Of a stretch of 64,000 nt of DNA, positions 2,723 to 7,266 are shown in pieces. The notes under the pieces are model-generated. The model ran no database searches, had not been told where the DNA came from, and saw only the letters and a list, made by a program, of their open reading frames with translations. Positions within the stretch are counted from its first letter, which is position 1. Each line of letters opens with the position of its first letter. The position numbers and the translations under genes are program-made. Origin of the DNA: a bacterium (GTDB lineage Bacteria; Patescibacteriota; Saccharimonadia; Saccharimonadales; Saccharimonadaceae); assembly GCA_030429445.1 (NCBI GenBank), contig JAUIFG010000003.1:9099-73098 (forward strand), in the 5' to 3' direction.

Positions 2723-3163
2723 TCACTCGACCTTTTGTGGCGCCATCAGACCCATCTTGCGCGCCTTGTTTGCCCATTCGTCTGCCATTTCGTTACCTTC
2801 ATCACCCTCGTGGCCTCGTACCCAGATAAGTTCGGCCTTGGACTGTTGATGAAGAGGAAAAACATCCTGCACAATATCCAGGTTCTTTATTTCTCCACCC
2901 TTCTTTTTCCAGCCTTTTGCTTGCCAACCGAATGCCCACTTCGTAATAACGTTAATCCAAAATTCGCTATCTGTATATATCTGACACTCCTCACCGTCGG
3001 CGTCCTCTAGCGCAGCTTTGATCGCCAAACCCTCCATGCGAATATTTGTTGTTTCTTCTGCTGGCTCACCCCCAACAATGTGCGGCTTGCCATCACGAAT
3101 AACAGAAAATCCACCAGGACCTGGGTTTGGACTCGCACTCCCATCTGTATAATAAGTTATCAT
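2723..3163 (-). CDS. rnhA: Ribonuclease HI
   Basis: Motifs YTDGSASPNPGPGGF, TNIRMEGLA, IYTDSEF and GHEGDEGNEMADEWA match the RNase H DEDD signature. Start moved to MITYYTDGS (ATG 3163), because the ORF-track extension to 3220 is hydrophobic read-through. Confidence 0.85.
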   Translation of the reverse strand: MITYYTDGSASPNPGPGGFSVIRDGKPHIVGGEPAEETTNIRMEGLAIKAALEDADGEECQIYTDSEFWINVITKWAFGWQAKGWKKKGGEIKNLDIVQDVFPLHQQSKAELIWVRGHEGDEGNEMADEWANKARKMGLMAPQKVE

Positions 3164-3208
3164 TTTACCAGTATACCAAGTTGTTTTTATATTATTTGGC
3201 AAAACTAC

Positions 3209-3214
3209 TATAAT
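3209..3214 (+). promoter_or_regulatory. -10 box TATAAT lying 6 nt upstream of the ATG of the PafA/Dop-like gene (putative leaderless transcript)
   Basis: TATAAT at 3209-3214, then ACACAT, then ATG at 3221. No Shine-Dalgarno motif in between. Confidence 0.4.
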
Positions 3215-3220
3215 ACACAT

Positions 3221-4612
3221 ATGGAAAAGACAGGAAAGCGAAGGATTAAGCCTTCATCATTTTTTACTAACGAGCCACCCGAGCGCATAGTGGGCGTCGA
3301 GTGTGAGTACAATATACAAAATACTATTAGCGAAACTAAAAAACCTGACATTTCGGAATATATTTCACAGCAGGCAATGGAAAGTGCAGGAATTCAAAGT
3401 ATTCGAGGATACACTGATAATGGATACAGGATATATAGCGATATGGGACATGCAGAGTGTTGCACTCCAGAATGTCTAGGTCCTTATCAAGCAGCAGCCG
3501 CTGACCTGGCGGGTATTGCCATAATGTCATCAATCATTGAAGCTTCGGGTGTTGACCATAATGGAGTTTACAGAGTTAGTGGAACATGGCCTAGCGGTAA
3601 CACAAATACTACCAGCGGTCTTCATGAGAACTTCATGGCTCCTGCAAGTATTGCCTACAGCTTGTTATTAAAATCACTGCTACCTACATATTATGCTACT
3701 AGGCTTGGCACCATGGCTGGAACTATAGTAGATAATCAATTCAGATTTTCCCAAAAAATACACGGCATTGGAGGTGACCCACTGTCATGGAGAACAGATG
3801 GCCGCAGAACTGCACACAGCAATAAACCAATGGCTTTATTGCTAAGCAACGATATAGACACTATTGATTCAGGCTGGTTAAGGCTAGAAACCAGATTTGC
3901 AGACGGGCCCATTTCTCTAGAATCAAGACGCCACGCCCTTGCAACAACCTCATTGATACTCCGGATGATAGAAAATGAAGAATTATTCATGGGAGACAAA
4001 CCAAAAGACATAGGTAACTTTGACGATATAATTATTGTTCGCCCATTAGAGGCGGCACAGAAGTTTATGTCTGATTTGTCATTAAAATCAACCGTATTAG
4101 TAGAATCTGGCAAACGAATGACCATGCTTGATATACAAGAACAGCTTGCAAAAAATGTTTTGTACTTGTGTGATCGAGTGAATTTACCATCAGATGAAGT
4201 AACTGCTGCAAATAAGTGGCCAGAAATATATGACGCATTTAGACGAAGCAATCCATTAAAAGCAGAGTACGATAGATACTTGCTGTACGATTTTGGCGTA
4301 GCCTCTAAACATAGTTGGCTAACCCATAAAAAGGATGCTTTCACAAAGGGCGACCTTGAAGCAAAAACAAGATCTCTTCAGTGGGACAGAGTCATTCCAA
4401 GAGGTAACGCACTATCTCTATTAGAAAAAACCTGTGACGATCCACAAATTGAAGTACTTAAACGGTCTGCCCCCAATACTCGTGCAAAATTAAGATCAAA
4501 TTTTATCTCAAATAACGACTCAGCCGAAGACATAGGGTATCTAAATTGGAGATACGTAAAAAAGGACGGTATAGAAAGAAATTTCGGTGACGCATTTGGT
4601 ACTATAAACTAG
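3221..4612 (+). CDS. Pup ligase/deamidase family protein (PafA/Dop homologue, glutamine-synthetase-like fold)
   Basis: 463 aa from MEKTGKRR. RIVGVECEYNI matches GIETE[FY]G, YRIYSDMGHAECCTPEC matches LYLDVGSHPEYATAEC, GLHENFMAP matches GCHENY, LLPTYYATRL matches LLPFLVTRQL, and APNTRAKLRSNFIS matches TTRARLRGEFIS of M. tuberculosis PafA as I remember it. The ORF-track start at 3080 overlaps rnhA and was rejected. Confidence 0.8.
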   Translation: MEKTGKRRIKPSSFFTNEPPERIVGVECEYNIQNTISETKKPDISEYISQQAMESAGIQSIRGYTDNGYRIYSDMGHAECCTPECLGPYQAAAADLAGIAIMSSIIEASGVDHNGVYRVSGTWPSGNTNTTSGLHENFMAPASIAYSLLLKSLLPTYYATRLGTMAGTIVDNQFRFSQKIHGIGGDPLSWRTDGRRTAHSNKPMALLLSNDIDTIDSGWLRLETRFADGPISLESRRHALATTSLILRMIENEELFMGDKPKDIGNFDDIIIVRPLEAAQKFMSDLSLKSTVLVESGKRMTMLDIQEQLAKNVLYLCDRVNLPSDEVTAANKWPEIYDAFRRSNPLKAEYDRYLLYDFGVASKHSWLTHKKDAFTKGDLEAKTRSLQWDRVIPRGNALSLLEKTCDDPQIEVLKRSAPNTRAKLRSNFISNNDSAEDIGYLNWRYVKKDGIERNFGDAFGTIN

Positions 4613-4613
4613 G

Positions 4614-4823
4614 CTACTGACCTCCCTTTTGAATATAGCCTCTAACGAATTCTTCAGCATTCTCTTCTAGTACTTCATCAATCTCGTCTAATATTCCATC
4701 AGTGTCCTCGCTCAATTTCTCGCGACGCTCTTGACCTGCTGTAGCATCAGAAAATTCCTCACTAGCTTCATCCCTATCTTCGTATTTTTTGCGAAATTGT
4801 CCACCCGACTCTAAATTACCCAT
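4614..4823 (-). CDS. pup: Prokaryotic ubiquitin-like protein Pup (C-terminal GGQ)
   Basis: 69 aa, acidic. The C-terminal half AGQERREKLSEDTDGILDEIDEVLEENAEEFVRGYIQKGGQ-stop closely matches remembered actinobacterial Pup. Codons GGA GGT CAG TAG were verified on the minus strand at 4625-4614. A weak SD (AGGGG) lies 7 nt upstream of the ATG. Confidence 0.85.
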   Translation of the reverse strand: MGNLESGGQFRKKYEDRDEASEEFSDATAGQERREKLSEDTDGILDEIDEVLEENAEEFVRGYIQKGGQ

Positions 4824-4887: not shown

Positions 4888-5634
4888 CTAATCCTCACCG
4901 ACTTCTCTATAGTGTTTTTTTAGATATCTTTGCATAGAATTCTTTCGCAACACACGAACGCCCTCATGTAATGGATTAGCGGCTCTAACTTCATCAGGAA
5001 AATCGTTCGTCTTTGCTGGAACATCAGCATTTAGTAAGTACTTTCTGATCATATTCTCTGCAATCCTCCTGAGCCCATCACTCAATTGACCGTTGTGCTG
5101 CTCTTGCGGAGGTACGAGTAGACTGTATACACCGGCACGATGTGCCGCTACAACATCAGTCAATATGCTGTCACCTACCATCAATATCCTCTCTTTTGGC
5201 AAGCGTTTTTTTCTGACAACATAATCAATCATCGCAAGAAGTGTGTGGCGTGCACGGATTACTGGACTCGGATCAACCTCAACCCGTAGGATCTCGGGGC
5301 AAACAATATCAATGTCTAACGCGCGTCTCCCTACCTCACTCTCCAGTTCATCCTGACGACGCTCGCCCTCTTCATTCAACATATACAAATCTAAGCCTAT
5401 TTGAGACATCTTCCGCATGTTTTCGCGAACCTTAACCTGATCAACTGTCTCACAATCAGAAATGAGAGCGACCCTCGAATCGAATAGAACAGTATCGAAA
5501 TCACCAAGTATTTGACCCTCTCCAAAATCAGCTGATGTTATCATTTCGACACTACTAGCAATGTATGTAGGCTGTAGCTGCTCAAAACATTGCTTCACAA
5601 CCCCCATTATGCTCCTCCTTAAAATAGGTTTCAA
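4888..5634 (-). CDS. HAD-superfamily (YqeG/IIIA-like) phosphatase
   Basis: ILMVGDSILTDVVAAHRAGVYSLLVPP matches the YqeG-type motif GDQLLTDVLGGNRNG..ILV.P. Motif I looks degenerate (LFDSRV). The start is uncertain (alternative M at 5607). Confidence 0.55.
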   Translation of the reverse strand: MKPILRRSIMGVVKQCFEQLQPTYIASSVEMITSADFGEGQILGDFDTVLFDSRVALISDCETVDQVKVRENMRKMSQIGLDLYMLNEEGERRQDELESEVGRRALDIDIVCPEILRVEVDPSPVIRARHTLLAMIDYVVRKKRLPKERILMVGDSILTDVVAAHRAGVYSLLVPPQEQHNGQLSDGLRRIAENMIRKYLLNADVPAKTNDFPDEVRAANPLHEGVRVLRKNSMQRYLKKHYREVGED

Positions 5635-5654
5635 CCATAATTTGCAAAAATTAT

Positions 5655-6533
5655 TTAGAAATCGACTCGCGTATCCAAAACTCTTGTACCAAAACCTTTT
5701 AGCTCGAAATGATCGTCATACAGCTCACTGATTCCATACGCATTCGTAACTCCACTCAACATCCCCGGTAATGTAATATATAGCGCCTTTTCTCGAGTCA
5801 AACCATACGCGCCACCATGATTGTGTCCATTCAGAAAGACTCTTGTATTATCATGATTGTGTATAACTTCCATGATTTTGTCATTGTTGAGCGCACTAAG
5901 CGAATTGTGCGGAAATATCTGATGGTGCGCCATTGGAATAGCCCATTGACCGTCTTTTTCAGCATCAGTTAGCTCCTGATCAAACCATTCCAACTGTTGA
6001 TCGCTGAGACCTCCGTTCCATTCATGAGCATTAATTGCGCCCCTCCCTCGCATTCGATTTAAAAATATGTGTCCTGCCTTCCATTCGGGACTTCCGACAG
6101 GGTGTTCTAACGGACCAAGTTCATTTGTATCTAGCATAATCAAACGGCTTCTGCCTTTTTGTACAGAATAGTAGTTACTCGGCATGTTATAGAGTGACAA
6201 CAATCCTTGCATTGTTGCTCGCGGGTCTGTCCATTCATGATTGCCAAATAAGTGCAGTACTCGCACACCCACCCTGCCCAAAATACGATTGAGCCTGTGT
6301 GCCTCATCCATATCACGATCATAAAAATCACCCAGATGGACGACATAATCAAGGCGCTTTTCTTTTTTGTACGCTAAAAATGTATCGACGGCTTCTTCTA
6401 ATTTTTGCTCCGACATACGATAACAATTGCGGAAACGAGAGCCCGATGCGCCACGTATCACACCCTCCGTATCGTCAGCATCTGCGAACTGACAATCCGC
6501 AATGACGCCATAAGAGACCTCGGGTTTTTTCAT
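5655..6533 (-). CDS. Calcineurin-like metallophosphoesterase
   Basis: Signature motifs GVIADCQFAD, VVHLGDFYD, GNHEW and NGHNHGG. Confidence 0.75.
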   Translation of the reverse strand: MKKPEVSYGVIADCQFADADDTEGVIRGASGSRFRNCYRMSEQKLEEAVDTFLAYKKEKRLDYVVHLGDFYDRDMDEAHRLNRILGRVGVRVLHLFGNHEWTDPRATMQGLLSLYNMPSNYYSVQKGRSRLIMLDTNELGPLEHPVGSPEWKAGHIFLNRMRGRGAINAHEWNGGLSDQQLEWFDQELTDAEKDGQWAIPMAHHQIFPHNSLSALNNDKIMEVIHNHDNTRVFLNGHNHGGAYGLTREKALYITLPGMLSGVTNAYGISELYDDHFELKGFGTRVLDTRVDF

Positions 6534-7087
6534 GCTATCAGTTTATCAGATTGTGCCTCTATGGTCTCTATCGAACGTGTGGGGCGAAAACGCAACCAAG
6601 TCTGCGGCGGAATATCAAACCTCACCACCGCTACAGCAAGCGACGCAAATGTTATCAAATCAGCTGTTGCACCCAAATACGATCCATTCAATATATTGTA
6701 AGTTAGCCAAAATGGCGCGATAGTTAGTGAGATCAATCGAATGTGCCGCGGATTTTTTTGCCACACTGCAACCGTCGCCAGTATCATACCAATGAGCGCC
6801 ATAATACTTGTCCAATCCTTCCATGTAACAAGCGTTGCGACTGCAAATGCAACTATAAATAGACCAAGTATCCATTCATGCTGACGAAACTTATCAAATG
6901 CGTAGCTCCGTAACGCACCTAGAAATACCAATCCAGAACCGGTAAATGCGCCCATAGCCATATAATGAGCCGCCCAGACAAGACATGACAAGATTTGAAC
7001 TCGTAGCATCCCCTGTCGATTGTTGACCTGAAACATCAAGACCAACAAAAAAACACCTACCAGTCCTAGCAGTTGACCAACAAGCAT
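6530..7087 (-). CDS. YgjV-like inner membrane protein
   Basis: 185 aa with about 5 hydrophobic helices. The overall pattern resembles E. coli YgjV. It overlaps the downstream gene by 4 nt. Confidence 0.5.
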   Translation of the reverse strand: MLVGQLLGLVGVFLLVLMFQVNNRQGMLRVQILSCLVWAAHYMAMGAFTGSGLVFLGALRSYAFDKFRQHEWILGLFIVAFAVATLVTWKDWTSIMALIGMILATVAVWQKNPRHIRLISLTIAPFWLTYNILNGSYLGATADLITFASLAVAVVRFDIPPQTWLRFRPTRSIETIEAQSDKLIA

Positions 7088-7212
7088 TCTTTACCCTCGA
7101 TTCTCCGAATTGTCCCGCAAATGTGCGAGTTACAGCATCATAATACCACCTGATATATCCTTTTGAATACGCTAATTTTGATGATGTTTTCCACAGATAC
7201 TTTAAAAGATGT

Positions 7213-7247
7213 AAAAAGGCGCCGTACCCGAGGGTCGTACGCCTTTA
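7213..7247 (-). terminator. Imperfect hairpin with T-run downstream of the sortase gene
   Basis: AAGGCG...CGCCTT outer stem with an inner CCC/GGG stem. On the minus strand it is followed by TTTTT. Confidence 0.45.
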
Positions 7248-7266
7248 TTACTACCTTGAAGGATGG

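Follow-up and report, generated by a model that had tools for sequence, protein, structure and literature searches.

The window analysed here, a 64-kb stretch of contig JAUIFG010000003.1, carries two convergent genes related to protein pupylation. The first, at 3221..4612 on the forward strand, encodes an enzyme of 463 amino acids that belongs to the Pup_ligase superfamily by its PF03136 match, its predicted fold, its motifs and its position in the tree, and that falls in a third, Saccharibacteria-type clade lacking the Dop loop. The second gene, pup, at 4614..4823 on the reverse strand, encodes an acidic tag of 69 amino acids that ends in GGQ, matches PF05639 and TIGR03687 and is of the actinobacterial type over its whole length. 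At the tail-to-tail junction (4610..4616), the stop codon of the enzyme gene (TAG, 4610-4612) and that of pup (4614-4616) are separated by a single base, which agrees with the layout described in a first-pass annotation of this DNA. Pupylation has been studied as a two-enzyme (PafA, Dop) system tied to Mpa and the proteasome in Actinobacteria.

The tag and the enzyme

The tag is a true homologue of Pup rather than a protein of similar composition, as the first-pass annotation had proposed from its sequence and GGQ end. It matches the Pfam Pup model (PF05639) with an E-value of 6.8e-24 and 85 bits (cut-off 27), and the NCBIfam model of the Pup C-terminus (TIGR03687) with 69 bits (cut-off 41). 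The criteria of Iyer et al. 2008 (PMC2588565) for Pup are a length of 50-90 residues and an isopeptide-forming G-[EQ] at the C-terminus, and the 69-residue tag with its GGQ end falls within them. Over the last 41 residues it differs at 8 positions from Pup of the M. goodii/M. tuberculosis type, much as had been estimated earlier from the last 40 or so. Its nearest relatives in the databases are the Pups of Streptosporangiales, Frankia, Pseudonocardiaceae and Mycobacteriales (69-76 bits), which are 56-71% identical to it over the full length, the N-terminal GGQ motif included; when only the last 41 residues are compared, identity to actinobacterial Pups rises as high as 88%. Sister Saccharibacteria, by contrast, have Pups that score only 38-41 bits against the window Pup and share with it just the last ~25 residues, though their enzymes are 53-56% identical to that of the window.

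Part of this resemblance lies in the middle of the tag, where the segment GQERREKLSEDTD is identical to mycobacterial Pup at 11 of 13 positions. The segment is kept in the window tag and in its 88% relative, is partly kept in locus L016, and has been lost from the other aligned tags of the clade. In mycobacteria, we take this to be the segment that binds Mpa, and not the one that binds PafA or Dop. Two explanations remain for the mid-region: either it is ancestral and has been kept under constraint in some lineages, or the tag has been replaced. At the C-terminus, GGQ is found in the tags of seven lineages of the clade, with GGE and NGQ in two lineages each. In a set of 120 Pups, most of them actinobacterial, 95 have GGQ and 24 have GGE at this end.

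The enzyme matches the Pfam Pup_ligase model (PF03136) with an E-value of 6.8e-28 and 98 bits (cut-off 25), and the family hallmarks that the first-pass annotation had recognized in this divergent protein all align with their canonical counterparts: GxExE (E27, E29), D74..H77.E79, H135-E136-N137 and T420-R421-A422..R425. Its scores against the equivalog models of PafA (TIGR03686, 73 bits) and Dop (TIGR03688, 58 bits) lie below the respective cut-offs of 551 and 492 bits. The AlphaFold (AF2) model of the enzyme has a predicted local distance difference test score (pLDDT) of 90.4 and a predicted template-modelling score of 0.92. Compared by Foldseek, the model shows the two-domain PafA/Dop fold, with template-modelling (TM) scores in the range 0.74-0.76 (e.g. 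0.76 to Dop 4b0r and 0.75 to PafA 4bjr), whereas the next-best fold family, GCS2/YbdK, reaches only 0.45. We also modelled the enzyme fused to Pup; the Pup part came out as one long, undocked helix with a pLDDT of 40-57, and is uninformative at such confidence.

An exhaustive homolog search covering 1.84 billion cluster representatives returned 601 relatives of the enzyme, 94 of them with E-values below 1e-30, and the third clade holds more than 150 cluster representatives at 50% identity. The PafA and Dop references for the neighbour-joining tree came from the M. goodii locus, PDB alignments and the canonical loci of a metagenome scan. In this tree, the window enzyme, its relatives and the representatives form one clade in 100% of 200 bootstraps, apart from all canonical PafA and Dop, those of Actinobacteria and of Gram-negative lineages alike; a grouping of the Saccharibacteria clade with PafA appears in 0% of the replicates. 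PafA and Dop are 1.2-1.3 substitutions per site apart, and the clade lies 2.2-2.5 from either, a divergence at which a neighbour-joining tree cannot separate an old lineage from a fast-evolving one. Judged by its sequence, the enzyme is a member of the PafA/Dop superfamily and an ortholog of neither PafA nor Dop. The earlier placement of the enzyme within the PafA/Dop clade is borne out at the level of PF03136, and gives way at the level of the two orthologous groups, outside which it is placed by both model scores and tree.

The catalytic core, that of a carboxylate-amine ligase, is conserved within the clade. Canonical PafA and Dop have 72 near-invariant positions in common; the 177 clade members retain 28 of these, and at another 25 the residue is replaced, three of these by swaps fixed in the clade. 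Those kept include GxExE, N67-G68, Y72, D74, E79, E84, H135 and N137, and further Q178, R196, R221, D228, R421 and R425 (the TRA..R motif). E27 and E29 of the ATP motif, the catalytic D74, and H135 and N137 of the HEN motif each occur in 93% or more of the 177 members, and 38 columns, catalytic residues included, are invariant among 34 close homologs. Several clade members are without a His after the catalytic Asp.

The distance between the GxExE motif and the catalytic Asp bears on whether the enzyme resembles a ligase or Dop, the Dop loop being an insertion of ~40 residues ahead of this Asp. The spacing is 47 residues in the window enzyme. Actinobacterial PafA has 48 residues and Gram-negative PafA 47-67 (mostly 57-67), whereas 28 of the 31 Dop sequences in which both motifs could be identified have 80-97. 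Aligned with solved Dop structures, the clade profile skips Dop residues 22-81, and the lack of a Dop-loop insertion noted in the first-pass annotation is thereby confirmed. Nearly all of the best 150 representatives in which both motifs could be placed lack the insertion, and none of the 150 carries the canonical Dop motif. The motif following the catalytic Asp, Y.D[VM]GH[AL]E..TPE, fits that of Gram-negative PafA (Y.DMGHLEY[AC]TPE) and not that of Dop (Y.DH[AT]HPEY). Four residues that are invariant in Dop (H96, P99, S152 and H232) are replaced in the clade by V/M, L/A, T and M, which are PafA-like in character; at the positions of Dop His96 and His232, the window enzyme has M75 and M204, and the clade majority V and M. 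With C. glutamicum PafA, the clade profile also aligns over its full length, down to the C-terminal DP[FY] motif, whereas with Dop the alignment stops at profile position 441 of 458. In these respects, the surroundings of the active site appear to lean towards a ligase.

We also tried to assign the enzyme by the positions that discriminate PafA from Dop and rejected this approach: at 12 of the 13 positions that separate the two across phyla the clade has neither state, and the actinobacterial positions given in Table 1 of Hecht et al. (2020) do not transfer either, as judged by eye on the alignment.

The pair in its genomes

The association of tag and enzyme extends well beyond the window. Pup lies tail to tail with the enzyme gene in 12 Saccharimonadales loci, with inter-stop distances of -22 to +35 nt, and the enzymes of these convergent loci are 34-88% identical to that of the window. 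In one deep member of the clade, L097, Pup is co-directional with the enzyme. A separate arrangement is found in L014 (ENA ERZ24794615 k141_1833020), where, at 6591-7265 on the reverse strand, ygjV is fused in frame to the last 41 pup codons. The resulting open reading frame (ORF) of 224 amino acids has matches to Imp-YgjV as well as to Pup; an internal in-frame ATG, preceded at 7 nt by an AGGAG, would also yield a free Pup of 60 amino acids. The L014 enzyme is 88% identical to that of the window, the locus is without HAD and metallophosphoesterase genes, and the contig is present in two samples.

We searched for the usual partners of pupylation with M. goodii Mpa, PrcA, PrcB, PafA, Dop, PafB and PafC as queries (phmmer, six-frame ORFs). 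Mpa, PrcA, PrcB, PafB and PafC had no match in the 64-kb window at E<=1e-3, and the searches found only the one enzyme and the one Pup. Among the long ORFs of the window, the Walker-A motif [AG]xxxxGK[ST] occurs only in two small ABC ATPases and one ParB-like protein. The initial statements that the 64 kb hold a single such enzyme, and no AAA+ unfoldase or 20S subunit, thus stood up to these searches. They hold likewise in 22 related loci, comprising 19 further clade loci from genomes and metagenomes and three deep-branching members, in which no Mpa/ARC, 20S subunit, PafBC or second paralogue turned up within +/-8-10 kb. The ~60 canonical loci of the metagenome scan, by comparison, have Mpa, Dop, PrcB, PrcA and PafA packed into ~8-10 kb. 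These linked-gene searches cover the window and, in its relatives, flanks of +/-10 kb, with ~70 kb of a ~1 Mb genome in view. Each of seven GTDB species genomes gave exactly one locus of the family, with search patterns that were built from the clade and that a canonical Dop would escape.

Another atypical architecture of the superfamily was seen in two metagenomic loci (L064:2086-7079 and L073:31-5102). Here a distant Mpa-like ATPase gene is followed by genes for two long-branched PafA/Dop-like paralogues of 520-590 amino acids, with no 20S genes.

The lineage of the host could be established from the surrounding genes. The window is collinear with L002 (CP060232.1, a complete genome of 1.13 Mb) and with L007, a metagenome-assembled genome (MAG) of the Saccharimonadaceae. 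The exact enzyme protein is also encoded on a 128-kb contig assembled from SRR24075712. CP060232.1 has the same gene order as the window (RNase H, enzyme, convergent Pup, YgjV), with an enzyme that is 53% identical. Most neighbouring genes are 58-89% identical to those of the collinear relatives (e.g. GlyRS, 84-89%; RNase H, 76-83% and in the same position in L002 and L007; RecO, 73-75%); conservation in the syntenic block is lowest for the enzyme (53%) and Pup (48%). Scanning a single genome for each GTDB species yielded seven loci, and those with labels belong to Saccharimonadales, Saccharimonadaceae or Saccharibacteria MAGs; across the clade, all labelled members are Saccharibacteria/Saccharimonadales, with a 'Nomurabacteria' label as the sole exception. 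The GC content of the window is 0.44, and 54 of its 62 long ORFs are on the minus strand. The two genes themselves have a GC content of 0.41-0.42 (pup 0.42), compared with 0.68-0.74 in actinobacterial loci, and their GC content at third codon positions (GC3) of 0.33 for the enzyme and 0.31 for pup is ~2 standard deviations below the window mean of 0.40 +/- 0.04.

Collinearity and organism labels identify the window as part of a Saccharibacteria chromosome (TM7, candidate phyla radiation), and not an actinobacterial one. This agrees with the non-actinobacterial context surmised at the outset; the host is not nitrospiral either. From the bootstrap support of the clade, the collinearity and the organism labels combined, we infer that the pair has been inherited vertically. 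L002 corresponds to CP060232.1:870132-891511, which is labelled 'Candidatus Nomurabacteria bacterium' and is 58-89% identical to the window in most shared genes; given its collinearity with both the window and a Saccharimonadaceae MAG, this label looks wrong. The GC skew is negative in every 2-kb bin of the window, which fits a single replichore with strong gene co-orientation.

On the far side of the enzyme gene lies its divergent neighbour, an RNase H gene (2723..3163, reverse strand; PF00075), which we report as context only. Its ORF was listed as 2723-3220 on the reverse strand, back-to-back with the enzyme ATG, and its homologs are shorter (144-148 amino acids); the start is likely the ATG of MITYYTDGS at 3163, not 3220. 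A start at 3163 would leave a divergent intergenic region of 57 nt that contains a promoter-like site (TTTATA-17 nt-TATAAT, 3186..3214, forward strand) just 5' of the enzyme ATG. This site is a consensus match only, at 10/12 positions, and promoter-like sites are not enriched in the region (10 found against 6.8 +/- 2.6 expected). The enzyme start is the ATG at 3221, as in the homologs; an alternative upstream GTG would give an ORF of 510 amino acids that overlaps the RNase H gene.

Upstream of pup and on its strand, the recurrent neighbour is a gene for an Imp-YgjV membrane protein (6530..7087, reverse strand in the window; PF10688 in L001 and L002), again given as context only. Its homologs adjoin pup in L002 and L007, and in the window HAD and metallophosphoesterase genes (4888-6533), present in the window lineage only, lie between ygjV and pup. 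A PADLOC search gave no match for the enzyme, the tag or four neighbour genes, and a reading of the pair as an anti-phage defence system was dropped for this reason.

At the junction of the enzyme gene and pup, we found no terminator-like site, and RNA folding revealed no stable hairpin, the junction folding no better than shuffled sequence (z = +1.3). A hidden bidirectional terminator was considered and rejected on the terminator scan and the shuffled-fold comparison, and the one-base spacing between the stop codons leaves no room for an intergenic terminator. Together with the tight and conserved convergent layout, this makes it plausible that the transcripts of the enzyme gene and pup overlap at their 3' ends. 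The first-pass annotation had described a zero-spacer layout with antisense overlap; the layout recurs in the 12 loci, and the overlap itself is plausible only.

A proposed one-enzyme module and its alternatives

We propose, at a probability of about one half, that the pair represents a vertically inherited, Saccharimonadales-specific, proteasome-unlinked two-gene pupylation module in which the terminal Gln of the tag is also processed by the one enzyme. In such a module, the enzyme would bind the conserved C-terminal helices of Pup, form a gamma-glutamyl-phosphate on its terminal residue and transfer the tag to protein lysines. Since Gln-ended tags predominate in the clade and no Dop-type gene lies alongside, processing of the amide probably falls to this enzyme too, either through prior deamidation or through formation of the acyl-phosphate directly from Gln, and it would probably also reverse the modification. 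Such one-enzyme chemistry is reasonable because Dop and PafA share an acyl-phosphate intermediate. The outcome of tagging would be uncoupled from a linked Mpa-proteasome and may be regulatory or feed another route.

In its fullest form, this proposal becomes a natural one-enzyme cycle, which we consider possible but doubtful, in which Pup-Gln would pass straight to the gamma-glutamyl-phosphate and from there to lysines, reversibly and without Dop, Mpa or proteasome. An engineered Dop/PafA hybrid, Dop2PafA-alpha-Ac, pupylates from ATP and Pup-Gln in a mixed Dop-PafA reaction, in which an acyl intermediate is formed and transferred to lysine, and it keeps some depupylase activity (PMC7947786). 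The hybrid serves as a working model for the proposed chemistry, but it is artificial and still has the Dop loop. For the ancestor before the PafA/Dop duplication, a promiscuous ligase that also had Dop-like activity has been proposed (PMC7947786), and Iyer et al. 2008 proposed that the ligase itself might deamidate the terminal Gln (PMC2588565). If the one-enzyme cycle is true, the Saccharibacteria enzyme would be a living counterpart of that promiscuous pre-duplication ancestor (Hecht et al. 2020).

Several observations weigh against the proposed module. Wild-type PafA cannot use Pup-Gln (PMC7947786). The clade profile, for all the ligase-like features, gives somewhat higher scores for Dop (124 and 110 bits) than the 86 bits that it reaches with C. 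glutamicum PafA, and the equivalent of the alpha-loop (residues 176-205) is modelled as coil, as in Dop, though at low confidence (pLDDT of 59 for residues 191-200); according to Hecht et al. 2020 (PMC7947786), activity is determined by the conformation of this element, which is helical in PafA and forms a loop in Dop. The active site bears clade-fixed swaps (R206->K, E230->K and H242->E), and the NN.D motif and R228 have been lost, a remodelling with which the chemistry could differ from that of both PafA and Dop. Several clade members (L011, L012, L019, L020, L022, L024, L095 and L096) have no recognisable Pup ORF within 8-10 kb of the enzyme gene; in these the tag may be encoded at another site, have diverged beyond recognition or have been lost. 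The retained GQERREKLSEDTD segment hints at an unseen Mpa-like partner, and a Dop-type paralogue, ARC/Mpa or 20S could lie beyond the window and the +/-10-kb flanks.

This last point leads to the main rival of the two-gene module, an ordinary but scattered pupylation system in which Dop, possibly ARC/Mpa, and perhaps a proteasome are encoded elsewhere and the window enzyme is a fast-evolving PafA. Separation of pafA from dop is known from Actinobacteria (~5 kb apart in M. goodii), a pure PafA role would fit the ligase-like signature, and the match at 11/13 positions to the presumed Mpa-binding part of mycobacterial Pup and the coverage of ~70 kb in a genome of roughly 1 Mb are both in its favour. 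We nevertheless judge it unlikely, since no second paralogue, Mpa or PrcAB is found within +/-8-10 kb in 22 loci when these genes are clustered in ~60 canonical ones, since each of the seven species genomes has a single locus (by clade-built patterns blind to canonical Dop), and since the Dop motif occurs in none of the top 150 representative homologs. Less likely again is an enzyme that acts as a ligase only, while Gln would become Glu through the action of an unrelated amidase or in a slow non-enzymatic reaction, and the modification would be irreversible or reversed in some other way. A non-specific amidase was raised as an alternative by Iyer et al. (PMC2588565), and the two lineages that encode GGE indicate that Glu-ended tags work in the clade. 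No amidase, however, is conserved beside the pair, whose neighbours are RNase H and YgjV (HAD and metallophosphoesterase genes occur in the window lineage only), and the fact that most lineages have retained Gln speaks for a dedicated step like the actinobacterial one.

The actinobacterial character of the tag invites two further explanations. One is the recent acquisition of the module, or of the tag alone, from an actinobacterium by horizontal transfer, an origin that the first-pass annotation had considered in the form of an actinobacterial partner. The tag resembles actinobacterial Pups over its full length, the N-terminal GGQ motif included, and its similarities are incongruent with the enzyme tree. 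As a recent event this origin is unsupported for the enzyme, which belongs to a deep Saccharibacteria-only clade at 2.2-2.5 substitutions per site from canonical PafA/Dop and sits in a syntenic housekeeping block. Both genes, with a GC content of 0.41-0.42 and a GC3 of 0.31-0.33, fall below the window mean, and actinobacterial loci have a GC content of 0.68-0.74; pup occupies the identical tail-to-tail position in distant relatives; and L016 and L002 keep parts of the actinobacterial-type features, which points to an ancestral state. We regard recent transfer as improbable on these grounds. The other explanation, which seems to us slightly more improbable still, is cross-talk between epibiont and host, in which the tag would mimic host Pup and the module would interact with the PafA/Dop/Mpa-proteasome of the host or process its pupylated proteins. 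Cultivated Saccharibacteria live on Actinobacteria; the window Pup is nearer to actinobacterial Pups (69-76 bits) than to those of sister Saccharibacteria (38-41 bits), whereas the enzymes follow organismal relationships, and the conserved mid-region corresponds to the presumed Mpa-binding part of mycobacterial Pup. However, the pair has neither a secretion signal nor linked secretion genes, and the feature is restricted to a lineage, L002 and L007 being without the mid-region and L016 keeping part of it. Slow evolution of a short, highly constrained peptide is the simpler account. That the pair is a decaying remnant without function is the least credible of these alternatives: the enzyme (53%) and the tag (48%) are indeed the least conserved in the syntenic block, and some relatives are without a Pup nearby, but both ORFs are intact, 38 columns including the catalytic residues are invariant, the enzyme model is confident, and the pair is conserved across enzymes only 34% identical.

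A mobile vector for the genes was also considered and rejected. The 'phage' match MT835496.1 (L098, MT835496.1:36180-49319, in a 159-kb record from human faeces entitled 'UNVERIFIED: Bacteriophage sp.') looks like actinobacterial chromosome, with a Mpa-Dop-Pup-PafA stretch of 74% GC, and two matches in a plasmid collection are actinobacterial replicons at 22% identity.

Relation to known pupylation systems

The proposed two-gene module can be compared with the canonical system as found in M. goodii (L013; Mpa/ARC, Dop, Pup, PrcB, PrcA, PafA, PafB and PafC). The tags are homologous over their whole length, with the M. goodii Pup being 80% identical to the window tag over the last 41 residues and ending in the same GGQ, and canonical PafA/Dop and the window enzyme have the same fold, GxExE motif, catalytic Asp and HEN core. 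The canonical system has two enzymes, whereas the window has one that is an ortholog of neither PafA nor Dop and has no Dop loop. The canonical genes form a co-directional operon in an actinobacterial host, whereas the window pair is arranged tail to tail, without linked Mpa, PrcAB or PafBC, in a genome-reduced bacterium of the candidate phyla radiation. Corynebacterium and similar Actinobacteria carry out pupylation without a proteasome, still with separate PafA, Dop and ARC ATPase. Their pupylation is thus likewise uncoupled from 20S, but PafA, Dop and ARC are present there, and none of these is linked in the window.

In the Gram-negative-type loci (Nitrospirae and similar; ~60 in L025-L094), the gene order is Mpa-Dop-(tag)-PrcB-PrcA-PafA, and the tag is reportedly called UBact by Lehmann and colleagues (2017). 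Gram-negative PafA shares with the Saccharibacteria enzyme the post-Asp motif and the absence of the actinobacterial Ser insertion. These loci, however, always add Dop with its Dop loop, Mpa and 20S, which the Saccharibacteria module does not have linked to it; the Saccharibacteria clade and the Gram-negative enzymes are split at 100% bootstrap in the neighbour-joining tree, and the window tag is of the actinobacterial Pup type.

Further published parallels come from Planctomycetes, in which single-copy homologs are equally distant from PafA and Dop (29-31% identical) and partly align with the Dop loop (PMC7947786), and from Rhodopirellula and Plesiocystis, in which Pup-PafA neighbourhoods without proteasome genes have been described (Iyer et al. 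2008, PMC2588565). As in the window, these cases combine one homolog, an adjoining Pup-like gene and no proteasome genes nearby. By their published description, the Planctomycetes proteins are nonetheless distinct from the Saccharibacteria enzyme, which is ~19-25% identical to PafA/Dop, has no insertion and belongs to another lineage.

The Saccharibacteria genes themselves are already annotated, since the NCBI pipeline names their products 'proteasome accessory factor PafA2 family protein'. In the literature searched, which takes in only a minority of the subscription journals, we found nothing that links Pup, PafA or pupylation with Saccharibacteria, TM7, the candidate phyla radiation or Patescibacteria, and the papers searched on Saccharibacteria and the candidate phyla radiation make no mention of a proteasome. 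What is new is the combination of a large, lineage-specific third clade, a fixed tail-to-tail layout, an epibiotic host from the candidate phyla radiation and a tag of the actinobacterial type.

Should Dop and ARC be encoded at another site in the genome, the finding would amount to no more than a known system in a new taxon. If the two-gene module is real, it would add a post-translational tagging system to the ultra-small epibiotic bacteria of the candidate phyla radiation. The near identity of its tag to the Pup of the Actinobacteria that host cultivated Saccharibacteria poses a testable question of host interaction. Mutagenesis has been the approach taken to date (PMC7947786) to the open question of how ligase and hydrolase arose from one ancestral enzyme. 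A large natural clade in which one enzyme of mixed features accompanies a Gln-ended Pup would permit a direct test of the ancestor hypothesis.

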